Virus record (IMG/VR): IMGVR_UViG_2879742664_000002
Source of the DNA: a virus
Lineage: Duplodnaviria; Heunggongvirae; Uroviricota; Caudoviricetes
Length of the DNA stretch: 13,683 bases
Reading direction: 5' to 3' (one strand)
Shown here: in pieces, positions 1 to 13,683 of the stretch
How positions within the stretch are numbered: the stretch's first letter is position 1
How the letters are laid out: the number at the start of each line of letters is the position of its first letter
The notes under the pieces: model-generated
What the model was told of the DNA's origin: nothing
Database searches by the model: none
What the model saw: only the letters and a program-made list of their open reading frames with translations
Position numbers and translations under genes: made by a program

Positions 1-1107
1 TTAAACCCATTCCTGACCTCGAGTATCGTTATAGCGATCGGTGGTTGCCTGGACTTTATGTCCTAGTAATGTTTTTGTATCGATACCCTGTGCACGGTAC
101 AGCCGTTCTGATAGAGAGCGTTGTTCATGAAATGTTGGCGGAGTTTTTCCTGCTGGTGGAATTATCCCAGCCAGATCCCGTGCTTTGGCAAAGTAGTCGC
201 TCAGGTTGTCTTTACTCATCGGCTTCGGTTGTTTCTGGTGCCGACTATGGATTAGATATGGACTTAATATTCTGTCTCGGCACCCATCAATAACTTCTTT
301 TAACGTTATCCCAATGGCATCACAGCGTAGTGTAAGCGGTAACGCCAGACGCATTCCGGTTTTTCCCTGGGTGATATGCAAGTGTTCGTTCCACGCATCT
401 GAAAAACGCATGTGGCAAATGTCATCACGGCGCTGACCAGTAACAATCGCAAGAAGCATTGCGTTACGGATAAAGTGTTTTTCAGGCGTTGCATTGTAAA
501 TTTTTTGCCAGTCTTCCATGGTGAGCCTGGCTCTGGTTACTTTAGGGATCGGTTTACGGGTAGCCTCCGGAGGATTCCATCCAGGAGGAACTTCCCCTGC
601 ATGCTGTGCTTCTTTATAAATATCAACCCATAATCCACGATTTACTCTCGCTGTGCTGACCATGTCTTTATCCAGCCACTCATCCAGTATTAATGCAAAG
701 TCTCTTACTTCCAGTTCTTTCAATGGGTGGTTTCCCAGACGGGAAACCAGGTATGCAGCCATTCGAGTTTTTTCTTTGTGAGTTGTAGCTGCAATATCTC
801 CATTTTTCAGTCGCGTGTCCTGTATTTTCAGATATCGATCAACCCATGCCTTTAATCTGATACCCCGACGTTTTGTTGCTGACGGACTTTCATCAATTTT
901 GCGCATGAAATATTCAGCTTCTGCTGCAGCTATTCGCTGATTGGCTGTGGAAGCGATTTTTTCTGCCTTACCTTTGTCTGTTCCGAGTCCGTGAAATTTT
1001 CCAGTCACAGGATTTTTATACTGGTAGTAAACTCTGCCAGTTCTGCGATCAAACTTTTCGTAAAGACCGGCTACGTCAGTGCTGTTTTTTCGTGGCCTCG
1101 GTGACAT
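1..1107 (-). CDS. int: Phage tyrosine integrase (lambdoid Int family)
   Basis: 368-aa minus-strand ORF; stop codon is bases 1-3, ATG at 1105-1107 with AAGGAG-type RBS just upstream (plus-strand ctcctt 1118-1123). C-terminal tyrosine-recombinase signature visible in translation (TGQRRDD, HEQRSLSERLY, LLGH, terminal Y in TDRY). Confidence 0.9.
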   Translation of the reverse strand: MSPRPRKNSTDVAGLYEKFDRRTGRVYYQYKNPVTGKFHGLGTDKGKAEKIASTANQRIAAAEAEYFMRKIDESPSATKRRGIRLKAWVDRYLKIQDTRLKNGDIAATTHKEKTRMAAYLVSRLGNHPLKELEVRDFALILDEWLDKDMVSTARVNRGLWVDIYKEAQHAGEVPPGWNPPEATRKPIPKVTRARLTMEDWQKIYNATPEKHFIRNAMLLAIVTGQRRDDICHMRFSDAWNEHLHITQGKTGMRLALPLTLRCDAIGITLKEVIDGCRDRILSPYLIHSRHQKQPKPMSKDNLSDYFAKARDLAGIIPPAGKTPPTFHEQRSLSERLYRAQGIDTKTLLGHKVQATTDRYNDTRGQEWV

Positions 1108-1311
1108 GAGTTAAAATCTCCTTCAGTGCATCATCATCGCCAGTATGAATTTCCGGCGCAATTCCCGTTTCACCTGGCCCAACAAATACTGCTCGGCGAT
1201 CTATCAGCCAACGCCCACGAATTTTTTGTGGTCTTGGAACGATGTATCCTAGTTTTCCGTATTTCACCAGGGTAGTGAGACTGAACCGTTTTGGTTTCCA
1301 CTCGTCGAGCG
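1076..1311 (-). pseudogene. xis: Excisionase (Xis-like) lacking its 5' end and start codon; truncated by IS1
   Basis: Phage-derived part of ORF 1076..1486 (LDEWKPKRFSLTTLVKYGKLGYIVPRPQKIRGRWLIDRRAV...) resembles lambda Xis as recalled (N-terminal ...LTLQEW... then a basic winged-helix region). Overlaps int start by 32 bp as xis-int pairs typically do. Reading frame upstream of 1311 is IS1 sequence. Confidence 0.55.
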
Positions 1312-1366
1312 GGTAATGCTGCCAACTTACTGATTTAGTGTATGATGGTGATTTTAAGGTGCTTGC

Positions 1367-1642
1367 GTGGCTTCCATTTCCATCAGATGTCCTTCCTGCT
1401 CCGCTACTGAAGGCGTGGTGCGTAACGGCAAAAGCACTGCCGGACATCAGCGCTATCTCTGCTCTCATTGCCGTAAAACATGGCAACTACAGTTCACTTA
1501 CACCGCCTCTCAGCCCGGTACGCACCAGAAAATCATTGATATGGCCATGAATGGCGTCGGATGTCGCGCCAGTGCACGCATTATGGGCGTTGGCCTCAAC
1601 ACGGTTTTACGTCACTTAAAAAACTCAGGCCGCAGTCGGTAA
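1367..1642 (+). CDS. insA: IS1 InsA (transposition inhibitor / N-terminal part of InsAB' transposase)
   Basis: 91-aa ORF starting at GTG 1367; translation [43 protein letters not shown]... matches the IS1 InsA zinc-finger/HTH protein as recalled. Confidence 0.9.
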
Positions 1643-1668
1643 CCTCGCGCATATAACCGGGCAGTGAT

Positions 1669-2064
1669 GTGATTGTCTGCGCTGAAATGGACGAACAGTG
1701 GGGCTACGTCGGTGCTAAATCACGTCAGCGCTGGCTGTTTTACGCGTATGACAGGATACGGAGGACGGTTGTGGCGCACGTCTTCGGTGAACGCACTCTG
1801 GCCACACTGGAGCGTCTTCTGAGCCTGCTGTCGGCCTTTGAGGTCGTGGTATGGATGACGGATGGCTGGCCGCTGTATGAATCACGCCTGAAGGGAAAGC
1901 TGCACGTTATCAGCAAGCGTTACACTCAGCGCATTGAGCGACATAATCTGAATCTGAGACAACATCTGGCAAGGCTGGGACGGAAGTCACTGTCGTTCTC
2001 AAAATCGGTGGAGCTGCATGACAAGGTCATCGGGCATTATCTGAACATAAAACACTATCAGTAA
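1669..2064 (+). CDS. insB: IS1 InsB frame (expressed as InsAB' fusion by -1 frameshift)
   Basis: 131-aa ORF ([28 protein letters not shown]...[15 protein letters not shown]) matching IS1 InsB as recalled. Frame is open upstream of 1669 and overlaps the insA end, consistent with programmed frameshifting at the A6C motif. Confidence 0.85.
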
Positions 2065-2079
2065 GTTGGAGTCATTACC

Positions 2080-3097
2080 CGCCGACTGCCTGGAATTTAT
2101 CTGGTCGTTACCCGAAAATTCTGTTGACCTGATAGTCACGGACCCGCCGTACTTTAAAGTGAAGCCTGAGGGCTGGGATAACCAGTGGAAGGGCGACGAT
2201 GATTACCTGAAGTGGCTGGAGCAGTGTCTGGCGCAGTTCTGGCGGGTGCTGAAACCTGCCGGAAGTCTTTACCTGTTCTGTGGTCATCGCCTGGCATCTG
2301 ATATCGAAATCATGATGCGTGAACGCTTCAGTGTGCTGAACCATATTATCTGAGCGAAGCCGTCCGGACGCTGGAACGGATGCAACAAGGAAAGCCTGCG
2401 GGCGTATTTCCCCGCCACAGAGCGCATTCTGTTCGCGGAACATTATCAGGGGCCGTACCGCCCGAAAGATGATGGCTATGAGGCGAAGGGCAGTGCACTG
2501 AAACAGCATGTGATGGCCCCGCTGATTTCTTACTTTCGTGATGCGCGAGCTGCCCTGGGGATAACGGCAAAACAGATTGCAGATGCCACAGGAAAGAAAA
2601 ACATGGTGTCGCACTGGTTCAGTGCCAGTCAGTGGCAGTTGCCGAATGAAAGCGATTATCTGAAATTACAGGCGCTGTTTGCCCGGGTGGCAGAAGAGAA
2701 GCATCGGCGTGGTGAACTGGAAAAGCTCCACCACCAGCTGGTGGATACGTATACCTCACTGAACCGGCAGTATGCGGAGCTGCTGAGTGAATATAAACAT
2801 CTGCGGCGGTATTTTGGCGTGACGGTGCAGGTGCCGTATACCGATGTGTGGACGCATAAACCGGTGCAGTTCTATCCCGGGAAACATCCGTGCGAAAAAC
2901 CGGCAGAAATGCTGCAGCAGATAATCAGCGCTAGCAGTCGTCCGGGTGACCTGATTGCAGATTTTTTCATGGGGTCGGGTTCGACAGTGAAAGCGGCACT
3001 GGCGCTCGGGCGTCGTGCAATTGGCGTTGAGCTGGAGACTGAACGTTTTGAGCAGACGGTTCGGGAAGTACAGGATTTAGTCAGCCAGAACGGATGA
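2080..3097 (+). pseudogene. Beta-class DNA methyltransferase (DPPY type, probably N6-adenine), N-terminally truncated by IS1 and interrupted by in-frame TGA at 2351-2353
   Basis: A single frame carries motif IV (LIVTDPPY), an HPCEKP motif, and motif I (DFFMGSGST) near the C-terminus, with stop at 3095-3097. The only interruption is TGA 2351-2353 in the sequence NHII*AKPSGRWNG. No native start codon downstream of the IS1 end; first in-frame start (TTG 2066) lies inside IS1. Confidence 0.7.
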
Positions 3098-3137
3098 TAT
3101 TGAAGAATTAATTACGCGTCGTTATTATGCGGCTCCC

Positions 3138-3213
3138 GGCCCTTTAGCTCAGTGGTGAGAGCGAGCGACTCATAATCGCCAGGTCGCTGGTTCAAATCCA
3201 GCAAGGGCCACCA
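3138..3213 (+). tRNA. ileZ: tRNA with CAT anticodon, ileX/ileY-like (tRNA-Ile2, lysidine-type; tRNAscan would call it Met)
   Basis: Hand-folded cloverleaf: acceptor ggccctt/aagggcc, D arm gctc-agtggtga-gagc, anticodon stem agcga/tcgcc with loop ctCATaa, T arm gctgg-ttcaaat-ccagc, discriminator A, encoded CCA. Gene symbol follows the prophage tRNA trio of Stx phages as recalled. Confidence 0.85.
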
Positions 3214-3220
3214 TCACATA

Positions 3221-3297
3221 CCGCCATTAGCTCATCAGGAAAGAGCGCCAGCCTTCGAAGCTGGCTGCGCGGGGTTCAAGTCCCCGATGGCGGTCCA
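3221..3297 (+). tRNA. argN: tRNA-Arg, anticodon read as TCG
   Basis: Hand-folded cloverleaf: acceptor ccgccat/atggcgg, D arm gctc-atcaggaaa-gagc, anticodon stem ccagc/gctgg with loop ctTCGaa, T arm cgggg-ttcaagt-ccccg, encoded CCA. Anticodon and symbol assignment are from manual folding and memory, not a tRNA-finder run. Confidence 0.75.
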
Positions 3298-3310
3298 TTA
3301 TCTGCATCAT

Positions 3311-3387
3311 GCGTTGTTAGCTCAGCCGGACAGAGCAATTGCCTTCTAAGCAATCGGTCACTGGTTCGAATCCAGTACAACGCGCCA
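3311..3387 (+). tRNA. argO: tRNA-Arg, anticodon TCT (reads AGA)
   Basis: Hand-folded cloverleaf: acceptor gcgttgt/acaacgc, D arm gctc-agccggaca-gagc, anticodon stem attgc/gcaat with loop ctTCTaa, T arm actgg-ttcgaat-ccagt, discriminator G, encoded CCA. Confidence 0.8.
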
Positions 3388-3401
3388 CACTTATTTTCCC
3401 T

Positions 3402-3427
3402 GGCTCGCTTTTGCGGGCTTTTTTTTT
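3402..3427 (+). terminator. Rho-independent terminator after the tRNA cluster
   Basis: Stem gctcgc (3403-3408) / gcgggc (3413-3418) with one G-U pair, tttt loop, followed by a run of 9 T (3419-3427). Confidence 0.55.
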
Positions 3428-3623
3428 AAATGTCTCACAATTCAGACGGTTGACTGTTGTCTGGTTTGCGGGGAGTTTGTTAAAAGAAACTGGCATGGTG
3501 AATCCCCCTGTGCGGAGGGGCAATCAGCGAGTAGGTATATGGGATAATCGCGGATTCAGGTGCTGGTACTGAATTCACCGGGAGGCACCCGGCACCATGC
3601 AATGGCACATAGCGCCACTCTCC

Positions 3624-3650
3624 AGCCCCTCTCCGGAGGGGCTTTCTTGT
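3624..3650 (+). terminator. GC-rich hairpin with T-rich tail (candidate plus-strand terminator)
   Basis: 8-bp stem agcccctc (3624-3631) / gaggggct (3636-3643), loop tccg, then ttcttgt. Confidence 0.4.
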
Positions 3651-3653
3651 GGG

Positions 3654-3683
3654 CAAAAAAAGCCCGCGCTGGGAGACGCGGGC
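3654..3683 (-). terminator. Candidate minus-strand rho-independent terminator
   Basis: Stem gcccgcg (3662-3668) / cgcgggc (3677-3683) with 8-nt loop, preceded on the plus strand by an A7 run, i.e. hairpin followed by T7 when read on the minus strand. Confidence 0.4.
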
Positions 3684-3876
3684 GGCAAGGAATAAACAAT
3701 AAAACGTGAAGTAATATTTCAGCTGGCGAATAATACCCCATAGTAGTCACTCTGCGCAACTGCGCGGTCTTTTTCGAATTGCGGGCTGTCGTCTCTCTTC
3801 TGCCATTGTCCTGTAACTTCCGGACTTCAGCCCGCTCCTCATTTTACTCACAATATTATCCCGGCCGGGAGGATTC

Positions 3877-4956
3877 ATGGCTTTTAAACACTATGATGTT
3901 GTCAGGGCGGCGTCGCCGTCAGATCTTGCGGAAAAGCTGACACATAAACTGAAAGAGGGCTGGCAGCCGTTTGGTAGTCCGGTGGCCATAACCCCTTATA
4001 CTCTGATGCAGGCGATTGCAGCAGAAGGTGCAGTAATCAGCGCCACCAGCGACCCGGAGTATTACTTTGTTGTGGTTCTGGCAGGGCAGTCAAACGGCAT
4101 GTCGTATGGTGAAGGCCTTCCGCTGCCGGGGACATATGACCGTCCGGACCCGCGTATTAAGCAACTGGCGCGTCGCAGTACGGTGACACCGGGCGGTGCA
4201 GCATGCAAATATAACGACATCATTCTGGCGGACCATTGTCTGCATGATGTGCAGGACATGAGCCGTCTTAACCATCCGAAAGCGGACCTGTCAAAGGGGC
4301 AGTACGGAACCGTGGGGCAGGGGCTGCATATCGCCAAAAAACTGCTGCCGTTTATACCGGCGAATGCGGGCATTCTGCTGGTTCCGTGCTGTCGTGGTGG
4401 TTCAGCGTTCACCACCGGAGCTGATGGCACATACAGTGACGCGAGTGGTGCCTCGGAGAATTCAACCCGCTGGGGTGTGGACAAGCCGCTGTATAAGGAC
4501 CTTATCGGTCGAACAAAAGCGGCACTGGAGAAGAACCCGAAAAATGTGCTGTTTGCCGTGGTGTGGATGCAGGGGGAATTTGATTTTGGCGGTACGCCGG
4601 CAAATCATGCCGCACAGTTTGGTGCGCTGGTTGATAAATTCCGTGCAGACCTGGCGGATATGGCAGGCCAGTGCGTCGGTGGCTCTGCTGGCGGTGTTCC
4701 CTGGATATGCGGGGACACGACGTATTTCTGGAAGCAGAAGAACGAATCCACGTACCAGACGGTGTACGGCAGCTATAAAAATAAAACGGAAAAGAATATC
4801 CATTTCGTACCGTTCATGACCGATGAGAACGGGGTGAATGTGCCGACGAACAAACCGGAAGAAGACCCGGACATTCGGGGTATCGGTTATTACGGTTCGA
4901 AATGGCGTGACAGCTCAGCCACCTGGACGTCACAGGACAGGGCGAGCCATTTCTAG
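3877..4956 (+). CDS. Prophage NanS-p-like sialate O-acetylesterase (N-terminal DUF1737-like region plus SGNH/SASA esterase domain), probably C-terminally truncated
   Basis: ATG 3877 with GGGAGGA RBS (3866-3872). Translation begins MAFKHYDVVRAASPSDLAEKL... and contains the esterase motif VVVLAGQSNGMSYGEG. ORF ends at TAG 4954-4956, exactly where IS66-like sequence begins; relatives are recalled as roughly 600 aa or more. Confidence 0.7.
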   Translation: MAFKHYDVVRAASPSDLAEKLTHKLKEGWQPFGSPVAITPYTLMQAIAAEGAVISATSDPEYYFVVVLAGQSNGMSYGEGLPLPGTYDRPDPRIKQLARRSTVTPGGAACKYNDIILADHCLHDVQDMSRLNHPKADLSKGQYGTVGQGLHIAKKLLPFIPANAGILLVPCCRGGSAFTTGADGTYSDASGASENSTRWGVDKPLYKDLIGRTKAALEKNPKNVLFAVVWMQGEFDFGGTPANHAAQFGALVDKFRADLADMAGQCVGGSAGGVPWICGDTTYFWKQKNESTYQTVYGSYKNKTEKNIHFVPFMTDENGVNVPTNKPEEDPDIRGIGYYGSKWRDSSATWTSQDRASHF

Positions 4957-5291
4957 ACTGGCCCCCTGAATCTCCAGACAACCAGTATCACTTAAATAAG
5001 TGATAGTCTTAATACTAGTTTTTAGACTAGTCATTGGAGTACAGATGATTGATGTCTTAGGGCCGGAGAAACGCAGACGGCGTACCACACAGGAAAAGAT
5101 CGCAATTGTTCAGCAGAGCTTTGAACCGGGGATGACGGTCTCCCTCGTTGCCCGGCAACATGGTGTAGCAGCCAGCCAGTTATTTCTCTGGCGTAAGCAA
5201 TACCAGGAAGGAAGTCTTACTGCTGTGGCCGCCGGAGAACAGGTTGTTCCTGCCTCTGAACTTGCTGCCGCCATGAAGCAGATTAAAGAAC
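4957..5291 (+). mobile_element. IS66-family left-end fragment (leader plus 5' part of orf1), cut by IS629
   Basis: Contains an orf1 (HTH_Tnp_1-type, ISEc8-like as recalled) preceded by an 88-bp leader with palindromes. Right boundary is the IS629 left terminus at 5292. Left boundary is approximate; no GTAAGCG-type terminus seen at this end. Confidence 0.5.
5045..5291 (+). pseudogene. IS66-family orf1/TnpA (helix-turn-helix accessory protein), 3'-truncated by IS629
   Basis: ATG 5045 with GGAG RBS. Translation [58 protein letters not shown]...MKQIKEL runs into the IS629 terminus after about 82 codons; the tail NRPGNPGD of the ORF is IS629-encoded. Confidence 0.6.
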
Positions 5292-5345
5292 TGAACCGCC
5301 CCGGGAATCCTGGAGACTAAACTCCCTGAGAAAGAGGTAAACAGG

Positions 5346-5672
5346 ATGACTAAAAATACTCGTTTTTCCCCCGAAGTCCGTCAGAGGGCGATTCGTATGG
5401 TTCTGGAAAGTCAGGGCGAATATGACTCACAGTGGGCGGCAATTTGTTCCATTGCCCCAAAGATTGGCTGTATACCGGAGACTCTGCGTGTCTGGGTACG
5501 CCAGCATGAGCGGGATACCGGAGGCGGTGATGGCGGGCTCACCACCGCTGAACGTCAGCGTCTGAAAGAGCTGGAACGTGAAAATCGTGAACTGCGCCGC
5601 AGTAACGATATCCTTCGCCAGGCTTCCGCTTATTTTGCGAAGGCGGAGTTCGACCGCCTCTGGAAAAAGTGA
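5346..5672 (+). CDS. IS629 OrfA (HTH DNA-binding part of the transposase)
   Basis: 108-aa [45 protein letters not shown]... with leucine-zipper-like C-terminus, typical IS3-family OrfA. Confidence 0.9.
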
Positions 5673-6559
5673 TGCCACTGCTGGATAAGCTGCGTAAGCT
5701 GTACGGGGTCGGACCGGTATGCAGTGAACTACATATTGCCCCGTCAACGTATTACCACTGTCAGCAACAGCGACATCATCCTGATAAACGCAGTGCCCGT
5801 GCGCAGCGCGATGACTGGCTGAAGAAAGAGATACTGCGCGTATACGATGGGAATCATCAGGTATACGGTGTGCGTAAAGTCTGGCGTCAGTTGTTACGGG
5901 AAGGTATCAGAGTGGCCAGATGCACTGTGGCACGTCTCATGGCGGTTATGGGACTTGCCGGTGTTCTCCGGGGTAAAAAGGTCCGTACGACCATCAGCCG
6001 GAAAGCCGTTGCCGCAGGCGACCGCGTAAACCGTCAGTTCGTGGCAGAACGACCTGACCAGCTGTGGGTGGCTGATTTTACTTACGTCAGCACATGGCAG
6101 GGCTTCGTCTATGTGGCGTTCATTATTGATGTGTTTGCCGGATACATCGTGGGGTGGCGGGTCTCATCGTCCATGGAAACGACATTCGTGCTGGATGCTC
6201 TGGAGCAGGCGTTATGGGCCCGTCGACCGTCCGGCACGGTCCATCACAGTGATAAAGGTTCTCAGTATGTATCGCTGGCCTACACACAGCGGCTTAAGGA
6301 AGCCGGATTACTGGCATCAACAGGAAGTACAGGCGACTCGTATGACAACGCGATGGCGGAGAGCATCAATGGTCTTTACAAAGCGGAGGTAATACACCGT
6401 AAGAGCTGGAAAAACCGTGCAGAAGTGGAACTGGCCACACTCACGTGGGTGGACTGGTATAATAATCGACGATTGCTGGAAAGGCTGGGCCACATCCCTC
6501 CGGCAGAAGCAGAAAAAGCTTATTATGCTTCCATCGGAAACGATGATCTGGCAGCCTGA
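5669..6559 (+). CDS. IS629 OrfB (DDE catalytic domain; expressed as OrfAB by -1 frameshift)
   Basis: 296-aa ORF overlapping the orfA end in the -1 frame; DDE-type integrase-fold hallmarks ([24 protein letters not shown]). Confidence 0.9.
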
Positions 6560-6602
6560 GTTCACAGATAAAACACTCTCCAGGAAACCCGGGGCGGTTC
6601 AG

Positions 6603-6953
6603 GGTGAGGGTGGTGAAGGCCATCTGAGTTCTTTCTTTGTCCAGACAGATAAAGCCAGTATTAATGTTGCATACCATCATACAGTTAATCAACAAAAAGA
6701 ACTTGGCACGTTTGGCGCATTCGACCATGACTGGCATACGCTTGCATTTAAATTTAAGGGCAGTAACAGCATTAATGTTACTCCGGTGCTTGATGGTGTG
6801 GATGGACAGGCGTTTGACCTGGTGAAATGGGCCAATACTGCTAATGGACTCAACAGGTTTGTCATTACGGATATTACAGGTAGTGCAGAAACCTACCCTG
6901 TACTTATTGATACGGTGGAAGTTAAAGCAAACAAAGCTGGAGCAGCCGCATAA
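6603..6953 (+). pseudogene. Start-less C-terminal ORF fragment (116 codons) resuming at the IS629 right end; possibly the displaced 3' part of the nanS-p-like gene
   Basis: Reading frame is open from the first base after IS629 to TAA 6951-6953 (GEGGEGHLSSFFVQTDKASINVAYHH...VEVKANKAGAAA); no start codon outside the IS. Assignment to nanS-p is inference only. Confidence 0.4.
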
Positions 6954-10986: not shown

Positions 10987-12415
10987 GTAAGCGTCAACGG
11001 AGCACCGTATTGACGCTTATTTATTGGTGAGTGCTACGTTCCATGGCAGGAGTTCGTCAACACGGTTGGAAGGCCATTCCGGCAGTACGCTCAGGATATA
11101 GCGCAGATACGCTTCCGGATCGATACCGTTCAGTCGGCAGGTGCCGATCAGCCCGTACAGTAGCGCACCACGCTCTCCACCGTGATCGCTGCCGAAGAAC
11201 ATAAAGTTTTTCTTTCCGAGACAGACTGCACGAAGCGCTCTTTCCGCGGCATTATTATCCGCCTCAGCCAGACCATCATCACTGAAGTTGCACAACGCAA
11301 CCCAGTGCTTCCTGATATACCGGAACGCATCTCTCAGACGGCATTTTTTCGATAACGTGTGTTCTTTCTCCTGCATCAGCTTATACAGGGAAGTCAGTAG
11401 CGGTTTACTCTGCATTTGCCTGACCGCCAGGCGTTCAGACACCGGCAACCCGCGTATTTCGTGCTCGATGGCGTACAGCTCACCGATTAGTTTCAGGGCT
11501 TCTTCCGCTGTCGCGCTTTTGGTACTGATATATACATCGTGGACTTTGCGCCGCGCATGAGCCCAGCATCCTGCTTCCGTCAACGCGCCGCCTTCTCGTT
11601 CGGCACTGAACAGCCGATCGTAACCATTAAACGCATCTGCCTGCAGGATACCCCGGAAGGGACTAAGGTGCTGCTCCGGATGTTTACCCTGATGGTCCGG
11701 TGAGTAGGCGAACCAGACCGCCGGAGGCTCTGGCGAACCGGCATTCCTGTCATCCCGGACATACGTCCAGATATATCCTGTTTTCGCCTTCTTCCTGCCC
11801 GGTGCCAGCACTTTTACTGGTGTGTCATCAGTGTGAACTTTGCGGCTGTTCATTACATAACGGTACAGAGCATCATTCAGCGGCGTCATTAACTGGCAGC
11901 ACGCGTCAACCCAGTTGGAGAGTAATGCACGGCTCAGTTCGACACCCTGACGGGCAAAAATTTCACTCTGACGATACAGTGGCAGGTGTTCGCAGTATTT
12001 TCCCGTTAACACGCGGGCAAGTAACCCCGGGCCCGCGATACCACGCTCTATCGGACGGGATGGTGCCGGTGCTTCAACGATGCAGTCACATTTTGTACAG
12101 GCTTTTTTTACCCGTTCTGTGCGGATCACTTTCAGAGCGCTGCTCACCAGTTCCAGTTGTTCTGCGCTGACTTCCCCCAGATAATCCAGCTCACCGCCAC
12201 ACTCCGGGCAACAGCTTTCTTCTGGCTCCAGGCGATTTATTTCGCGGGGCAGATGCTCCGGTAACGGGCGACGATGACGAGACTGTCGCAACTGGCGGGG
12301 AACCTGCGGATCGTCTTCCCGCCCACTGTAACGATCACTGTCCTGTTCGCGTTGTTTCAGCAGGGCCTCAGCCTGTTCAACTTCACGACGCAGTTTTTCA
12401 GAACGGGTACCGAAC
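10987..12415 (-). mobile_element. IS66-family element, right-end portion (terminal repeat plus tnpC), truncated by IS629
   Basis: GTAAGCG terminal motif at 10987-10993 (typical IS66 terminus as recalled); tnpC-type ORF on the minus strand; abuts the IS629 left terminus at 12416. Confidence 0.7.
11017..12415 (-). pseudogene. IS66-family transposase TnpC (DDE_Tnp_IS66 type), 5'-truncated by IS629
   Basis: Frame open from the IS629 junction with no ATG (FGTRSEKLRREVEQAEALLKQ... then CCPECGGEL zinc-ribbon motif, LPLYRQSEIFARQGVELSRALL, DDTPVKV, C-terminal LLPWNV); stop at 11017-11019. About the first 50 codons are missing. Confidence 0.8.
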
Positions 12416-12469
12416 TGAACCGCCCCGGGAATCCTGGAGACTAAACTCCCTGAGAAAGAGGTAAACAGG

Positions 12470-12796
12470 ATGACTAAAAATACTCGTTTTTCCCCCGAAG
12501 TCCGTCAGAGGGCGATTCGTATGGTTCTGGAAAGTCAGGGCGAATATGACTCACAGTGGGCGGCAATTTGTTCCATTGCCCCAAAGATTGGCTGTACACC
12601 GGAGACTCTGCGTGTCTGGGTACGCCAGCATGAGCGGGATACCGGAGGCGGTGATGGCGGGCTCACCACCGCTGAACGTCAGCGTCTGAAAGAGCTGGAA
12701 CGTGAAAATCGTGAACTGCGCCGCAGTAACGATATCCTTCGCCAGGCTTCCGCTTATTTTGCGAAGGCGGAGTTCGACCGCCTCTGGAAAAAGTGA
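12470..12796 (+). CDS. IS629 OrfA (copy 2)
   Basis: 108-aa ORF identical to copy 1 except Ile to Thr at residue 43 ([12 protein letters not shown]). Confidence 0.9.
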
Positions 12797-13683
12797 TGCC
12801 ACTGCTGGATAAGCTGCGTAAGCTGTACGGGGTCGGACCGGTATGCAGTGAACTACATATTGCCCCGTCAACGTATTACCACTGTCAGCAACAGCGACAT
12901 CATCCTGATAAACGCAGTGCCCGTGCGCAGCGCGATGACTGGCTGAAGAAAGAGATACTGCGCGTATACGATGGGAATCATCAGGTATACGGTGTGCGTA
13001 AAGTCTGGCGTCAGTTGTTACGGGAAGGTATCAGAGTGGCCAGATGCACTGTGGCACGTCTCATGGCGGTTATGGGACTTGCCGGTGTTCTCCGGGGTAA
13101 AAAGGTCCGTACGACCATCAGCCGGAAAGCCGTTGCCGCAGGCGACCGCGTAAACCGTCAGTTCGTGGCAGAACGACCTGACCAGCTGTGGGTGGCTGAT
13201 TTTACTTACGTCAGCACATGGCAGGGCTTCGTCTATGTGGCGTTCATTATTGATGTGTTTGCCGGATACATCGTGGGGTGGCGGGTCTCATCGTCCATGG
13301 AAACGACATTCGTGCTGGATGCTCTGGAGCAGGCGTTATGGGCCCGTCGACCGTCCGGCACGGTCCATCACAGTGATAAAGGTTCTCAGTATGTATCGCT
13401 GGCCTACACACAGCGGCTTAAGGAAGCCGGATTACTGGCATCAACAGGAAGTACAGGCGACTCGTATGACAACGCGATGGCGGAGAGCATCAATGGTCTT
13501 TACAAAGCGGAGGTAATACACCGTAAGAGCTGGAAAAACCGTGCAGAAGTGGAACTGGCCACGCTCACGTGGGTGGACTGGTATAATAATCGACGATTGC
13601 TGGAAAGGCTGGGCCACATCCCTCCGGCAGAAGCAGAAAAAGCTTATTATGCTTCCATCGGAAACGATGATCTGGCAGCCTGA
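12793..13683 (+). CDS. IS629 OrfB (copy 2; expressed as OrfAB by frameshift)
   Basis: 296-aa ORF matching copy 1 at the protein level; stop codon is the last three bases of the window. Confidence 0.9.

Follow-up and report, generated by a model that had tools for sequence, protein, structure and literature searches.

Deletions that IS1 promotes beside itself are part of classic IS1 genetics, and lambda-like prophages that have become grounded are familiar from DLP12 and Rac of Escherichia coli K-12 and from the defective Shiga-toxin prophage of Shigella dysenteriae 1, which is flanked by insertion sequences (ISs). IS1 is the most abundant IS in Shigella, where ISs have been described as drivers of deletion (PMC7373316). 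The locus described here is a joint of this kind in a stretch of 13,683 nucleotides (IMG/VR virus record IMGVR_UViG_2879742664_000002, Caudoviricetes), the whole of which is called the window below. Its positions 1-3100 are found exactly in CP026811.1, the chromosome of Shigella flexneri strain 64-5500, a serotype 6 strain (PMC9455713). The host gene potC adjoins the phage integrase gene (int), and in sister strains the same element stops at potB, past part of a tail-fibre assembly gene. The window thus covers most of what remains of a lambda-like prophage inserted between these two host genes. In this remnant a single IS1 joins what is left of the excisionase gene (xis) directly to what is left of a DNA methyltransferase gene (the methylase gene), and the intervening early region, about 16.7 kb in an intact relative, is missing. 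An IS1-associated deletion very probably made this joint.

The first-pass annotation of this sequence had proposed that a 768-bp IS1 is all that separates xis from the methylase gene, that both genes have lost their starts, and that the 9-mers beside the IS1 are similar without being identical, and closer inspection bears out each of these points. The IS1 occupies 1312-2079 (plus strand), exactly 768 bp, and is the sole separator of the two genes. To its left, the xis remnant (1076-1311, minus strand; phrog_629, E=2.8e-20) is missing 22 nt, that is, its first 7 codons and 1 base compared with E. coli FDAARGOS_536, and it matches phrog_629 from profile position 7 rather than over the full N terminus. 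PHROGs recognised this remnant, for which there was no Pfam match. To its right, the methylase remnant (2080-3097, plus strand; N6_N4_Mtase type) is missing 41 nt, that is, the first 13 codons and 2 bases of the gene for a 349-aa protein in E. coli FDAARGOS_536, and in four different relatives the similarity to the methylase gene starts exactly at the equivalent of window position 2080.

The left flanking 9-mer, CGTCGAGCG (1303-1311), is native xis sequence and the right one, CGCCGACTG (2080-2088), is native methylase-gene sequence. They are identical at 6/9 positions, with C first and G last in both, and a renewed search for a target duplication at the IS1 flanks found no 9-bp and no 8-bp match. 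The chance of at least six matches in nine is ~0.01, assuming equal base frequencies and as a single post-hoc comparison, and the likeness reflects chance, or else a target preference of IS1 that both sites share. Microhomology, or a duplication that has degenerated or decayed, was rejected as its source because both 9-mers occur as unchanged native gene sequence in intact relatives. Other IS1 copies served as controls: the one that related strains have between potA and pepT, ~3 kb past the prophage, is flanked by a perfect duplication of 9 bp (TAAAGCTAA), and one in a prophage of E. coli ST131 by a duplication of 8 bp, so the absence of a duplication here is meaningful. A deletion derivative of IS1 is expected to lack one.

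Intact relatives show how far apart the two flanks originally lay. In the prophage of E. coli FDAARGOS_536, which is integrated at the same potC/potB site and is collinear with the window, 16,752 bp separate the two breakpoints. The gene order there is int, xis, exonuclease and so on to the Q antiterminator gene, followed by the gene for the 349-aa methyltransferase, three transfer RNA (tRNA) genes, iraM, a sialate esterase gene and lysis genes; the interval between the breakpoints holds the exonuclease gene, dicB, a RelBE pair, immunity and regulatory genes, replication genes, rusA and the Q antiterminator gene. Both flanks of the IS1 keep the order and relative orientation that they have in FDAARGOS_536, so that native flanks that are far apart, and collinear, in an intact relative now meet at one IS1, as in a deletion scar. 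Identity between FDAARGOS_536 and the window is 95% over the methylase gene and ~99% over int-xis. Phage vB_EcoS-640R1, whose int-xis is 98.8% identical, agrees with FDAARGOS_536 in the order of its early region between xis and Q. Both relatives thus resemble the window in int-xis (98.8-99% identical), integration site and gene order, and differ from it in that neither has lost its structural genes or the 16.7-kb early region; vB_EcoS-640R1 also differs in having no methylase gene after Q. Comparison of each flank with intact relatives turned up none that has xis and the methylase gene as natural neighbours, and the assertion that the early region normally lies between them stands. An O157:H7 element at potC was also considered as a reference and rejected, being itself heavily deleted.

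The joint is shared. Both junctions are identical in 14/14 Shigella loci examined (complete or draft), among them at least nine complete chromosomes; several draft contigs end at or inside the IS1 past the same left junction. CP000036.1, which we take to be S. boydii Sb227, carries both junctions. The four loci that could be identified through papers or plasmid records are all S. flexneri 6 or S. boydii. Besides 64-5500 itself they are two more S. flexneri 6 strains, 401192 from Kenya and 703427 from Pakistan (PMC11708030), and S. boydii ATCC 8700 (PMC9430107), and the last differs from the window at only three positions between 279 and 5000. A single clade unites S. flexneri 6 with part of S. 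boydii (PMC7373316). Neither junction occurs in any of 5,426 complete E. coli genomes. Each flank is present in ~1,500-1,850 of them, and in the best-ranked of these the match ends exactly at the IS1 end. With identical junctions at 14 loci, the scar is therefore old and inherited and not an assembly artefact. It is older than the divergence of S. flexneri 6 from S. boydii and has been passed on vertically, with later lesions nested inside the clade that shares it, for which the identical junction could serve as a lineage marker.

A single IS1 between native, unrelated flanks that remain collinear with the intact prophage argues strongly for an IS1-associated deletion, by whichever route. The simplest route, to which we give about an even chance, is an IS1 adjacent deletion in one step. 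An IS1 resident at one breakpoint would have transposed intramolecularly into the other breakpoint, keeping itself and one original flank and joining its other end to the new target, while the DNA in between would have been discarded as a circle and no target duplication would have been left. The roughly 16.7 kb removed in this way would have begun at the xis start and ended at codon 14 of the methylase gene, taking in the genes for recombination, immunity, replication and Q. The loss would have occurred in an ancestor common to both S. boydii and S. flexneri serotype 6, and the stranded genes would have decayed afterwards. The same interval would be deleted, with half of each target duplication left, if two IS1 copies in direct orientation, one at the xis start and one at methylase codon 14, had undergone homologous recombination, and we rate this a serious contender with somewhat less than an even chance. 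It predicts exactly the structure observed. Near-identical IS1 copies are very numerous in Shigella genomes; IS1 accounts for 42-59% of insertion sites there, and deletions between homologous copies have been described (PMC7373316). Another IS1 copy is present ~3 kb past the prophage in related strains. The shared C and G ends of the 9-mers and their 6/9 likeness would also fit two sites chosen by IS1, although an adjacent deletion predicts the same. On the other side, recombination between two copies needs two separate prior insertions in one prophage, and neither single insertion was found among the complete E. coli genomes, species-representative genomes and metagenome contigs searched. Nor does the IS1 show mosaic structure as a trace of recombination, although none would be expected among near-identical copies: the window IS1 is only one base off other copies, which leaves this test powerless. 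The adjacent deletion is slightly preferred because it takes fewer events, one insertion and one further event rather than two insertions and one further event, which is an argument from parsimony.

Several points weigh against an adjacent deletion of the size proposed. The sequence fits it and the two-copy route equally well, as both predict one IS1 between two unrelated native 9-mers; the first-pass annotation had left the choice between them open, and its pairing of the two is supported. No intermediate, that is, an IS1 in xis with CGTCGAGCG duplicated or in the methylase gene with CGCCGACTG duplicated, was found in the 5,426 E. coli genomes. Exact patterns for the same intermediates, which allowed either IS1 orientation and isoform, had no match in species-representative genomes and metagenome contigs, a weak negative as assemblies break at IS1 and Shigella is sparse there. 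The resident IS1 has a nonsense codon, and if this is older than the deletion, transposase would have been needed from another copy. Finally, the figure of 16.7 kb is estimated from a single mosaic relative, FDAARGOS_536, which stands in for the true ancestor.

It is improbable that the early region was rearranged rather than lost, with IS1 recombination having moved it elsewhere by inversion or translocation. IS-linked rearrangements are frequent in Shigella genomes (PMC8072062), and such an event would leave complementary junctions, with IS1 ends beside TTATCAGGTACTG... and ...GAGTTAATCAA. However, the flanks have the order and orientation of the intact prophage and its two ends are still at potC and potB, which excludes a single inversion, and a translocation needs extra events. 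Least credible of all is a simple IS1 insertion into a pre-existing junction (a natural adjacency or an IS-independent deletion), or an assembly artefact from collapsed IS1 repeats: IS1 duplications are now and then of unusual length, but here there is no 8- or 9-bp duplication, both genes run on past the breakpoints with native sequence in all relatives, and the same junctions recur in at least nine complete chromosomes and several drafts. The missing duplication and the independent assemblies refute this reading as far as sequence can.

The element at the joint is an IS1 of an isoform common in Shigella, and it has since picked up a defect. Its terminal inverted repeats (23 bp, GGTAATGCTGCCAACTTACTGAT and GGTAATGACTCCAACTTACTGAT) match at 20/23 positions, insA lies at 1367-1642 (plus strand), the A6C frameshift motif TTAAAAAAC at 1616-1624 (plus strand), and the insB' frame runs to 2064 (plus strand). 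Pfam matches cover Zn_ribbon_InsA (PF03811), HTH_Tnp_IS1 (PF12759) and DDE_Tnp_IS1 (PF03400). Length, inverted repeats, insA/insB' with a -1 frameshift at A6C, and domains are thus all those of the IS1 family. A T at position 1654 creates TAA at 1654-1656 in the insB' transposase frame, 10 codons past the frameshift site, where other copies have CAA; the InsAB' transposase frame of an autonomous copy is therefore not open in the window IS1. This IS1 is 99.9% identical to copies on S. boydii, S. dysenteriae and S. flexneri plasmids and 91.1% identical to IS1A. T1654 is its sole difference from the copy on the strain's own plasmid, which has C, and the neighbouring chromosomal IS1 between potA and pepT also has C at this position. 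At the joint itself, C is found at 1654 in 5/14 loci, including S. flexneri 6 strain 703427, whose IS1 has one more change at 1435; the two together suggest that the IS1 of this strain was converted by another IS1 copy. On the minus strand, an open frame of 136 aa (1076-1486) starts at a TTG in the left end of the IS1 and continues in frame into the xis remnant. Some annotations list it as a gene of 123-140 aa, and it is probably a by-product of the joint.

The genes left of the joint have decayed further. The lambda-type tyrosine integrase gene (1-1107, minus strand; Pfam Arm-DNA-bind_1, PF09003, and Phage_integrase, PF00589) overlaps the xis remnant in the usual arrangement. Its arm-binding and catalytic domains are present and the tyrosine motif DRYND is kept. 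However, its product has 368 aa rather than 372: an extra A in the A-run at 3-5 frameshifts the end (WVKLVI* to WV*), so that the C-terminal tail is incomplete, with KLVI gone. In alignment with the E. coli integrase, one substitution and the loss of these last four residues are the only differences. In lambda Int, normal recombination depends on the equivalent tail. All Shigella loci that reach this point (12/12) have the frameshift. Compared with the 89-aa Xis of E. coli, the remnant lacks the first 8 residues (MSEQYLIT) and has lost 4 more (PITN) through a 12-bp in-frame deletion (GTTTGTTATTGG) after position 1276 (1276/1277). Nine of the 14 loci carry this deletion, all four named serotype 6 strains among them, and five lack it (L023, which is S. 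boydii ATCC 8700, and L026, L027, L032 and L034). All five have the same IS1 junction, so the xis deletion is later than the joint.

On the right of the joint, the methylase remnant is still recognisable, with PF01555 in both halves (E=7.7e-14 and 2.5e-24) and a DPPY motif. In intact relatives the gene lies directly downstream of the Q antiterminator gene. Here it has no intact reading frame with a start of its own: the first 41 nt are gone, and a TGA at 2351-2353, common to S. boydii, replaces a Trp codon. A TTG in the right end of the IS1 (2066-2068, plus strand), one base past the insB stop, is in frame with the remnant and opens a reading frame at 2066-2353. In S. flexneri 6 strain 401192 (locus L003), TGG stands in place of this TGA, which extends the frame from TTG 2066 to 343 codons. 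The change belongs to a 199-bp patch with nine changes (at the equivalent of window positions 2353-2551), 9/9 of which match the common allele of other prophage copies, and the patch looks, from its sequence, like a gene-conversion tract. A scan of the right end of the IS1 found no outward promoter-like site. If the frame were transcribed from IS1 and translated, the scar in 401192 would encode an IS1-driven orphan DNA methyltransferase, which we regard as a long shot. Were it so, an IS1-driven methyltransferase would be switched on and off among lineages by gene conversion, and the DNA methylation patterns of the strains would differ.

Beyond the methylase remnant, ARAGORN finds three phage tRNA genes at 3138-3387 (plus strand; anticodons CAT, TCG and TCT), the first of which (CAT) is tRNA-Ile in the NCBI annotation of E. 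coli relatives. The three mark the region downstream of Q in intact relatives. The interval from the tRNAs to the esterase (3388-3876) is the site of the Shiga-toxin genes in related toxin-carrying phages, and here it contains neither a toxin gene nor iraM. The sialate esterase gene (DUF1737 and SASA domains) begins at 3877 and is cut at ~4957, leaving 359 aa compared with 574-665 aa in relatives. It is followed by an IS66-family orfA fragment (5000-5291) and an IS629 copy (5292-6601). An open reading frame at 6417-6953 starts inside the end of this IS629; at the corresponding place, sister loci have a gene call with a DUF6645 domain, an esterase C-terminal domain. The structural genes are gone, and IS66-family and IS629 sequences lie between the lysis genes and potB. 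Within the window this block (11017-13683) consists of a truncated IS66-family transposase gene (424 aa) and a second IS629 that interrupts it; this IS629 starts at 12416, extends as far as the window does and is two bases off the first copy. The block occupies the place of the terminase-to-tail genes of relatives, and therefore represents a second IS-associated loss. A 14-bp sequence, CACCTTCTTATTCA, is present at both prophage ends, at the potC start (170 nt left of window position 1, in locus L004) and at the potB end (L023 14944). It is probably the attachment core, and both att sites would thus survive. The right end of the remnant was located with the 108-aa version of a TonB_C gene; the 113-aa version was also tried as a probe, and matched only unrelated E. 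coli ED1a prophages.

The first-pass annotation had further supposed that this prophage is defective and cannot excise normally, and the lesions agree with that reading: xis is truncated and has the 12-bp deletion, int lacks its last four codons, the methylase gene has a stop and the structural genes are gone. Four of the lesions, namely the methylase TGA, the 12-bp xis deletion, the int frameshift and the IS1 TAA, are additional to those it had recorded. Repressor, early promoters, replication genes, Q and virion genes are all missing from the remnant, and from this, together with the truncated xis and shortened int, we infer that it is neither inducible nor packageable and that unaided excision is very unlikely. 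The joint accounts for the fixation of phage tRNAs and some late genes at potC. It offers a clean and datable case of ISs grounding a Shigella prophage, in which one IS1 event removed everything needed for induction. The event itself is of a well-known textbook kind and adds no new principle on IS1 or on prophage decay. We found no description of this particular joint in the literature, and its sequence has been public in genomes for years.

Compared with known systems, the joint resembles IS1 adjacent deletions and IS-mediated genome reduction in Shigella in having one IS1 at a novel joint, no duplication and an adjoining block lost. It differs from IS1 adjacent deletions as usually described in being fixed and inherited in a prophage, rather than a laboratory deletion, and in that its IS1 copy has since gained a nonsense codon. 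Like DLP12, Rac and the S. dysenteriae 1 prophage, the element consists of int/xis remnants and some late genes left after internal deletions, with ISs inside; those prophages have other integration sites and gene sets, and here the interval between the tRNAs and the esterase holds no toxin gene. The closest parallel is E. coli AF14 (NZ_OZ546925.1), where a prophage of the same type at the potC site has an IS1 in the same orientation without a target duplication, and has lost ~15.2 kb of early region from the recombination genes to the same methylase gene. In AF14, however, the element is IS1A (L001 9520-10287, 91% identical), the breakpoints are in the exonuclease gene and at the equivalent of window position 2774, and xis is intact. 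As isoform and breakpoints both differ, the deletion in AF14 is an independent event, and this parallel shows that the IS1 deletion route recurs.

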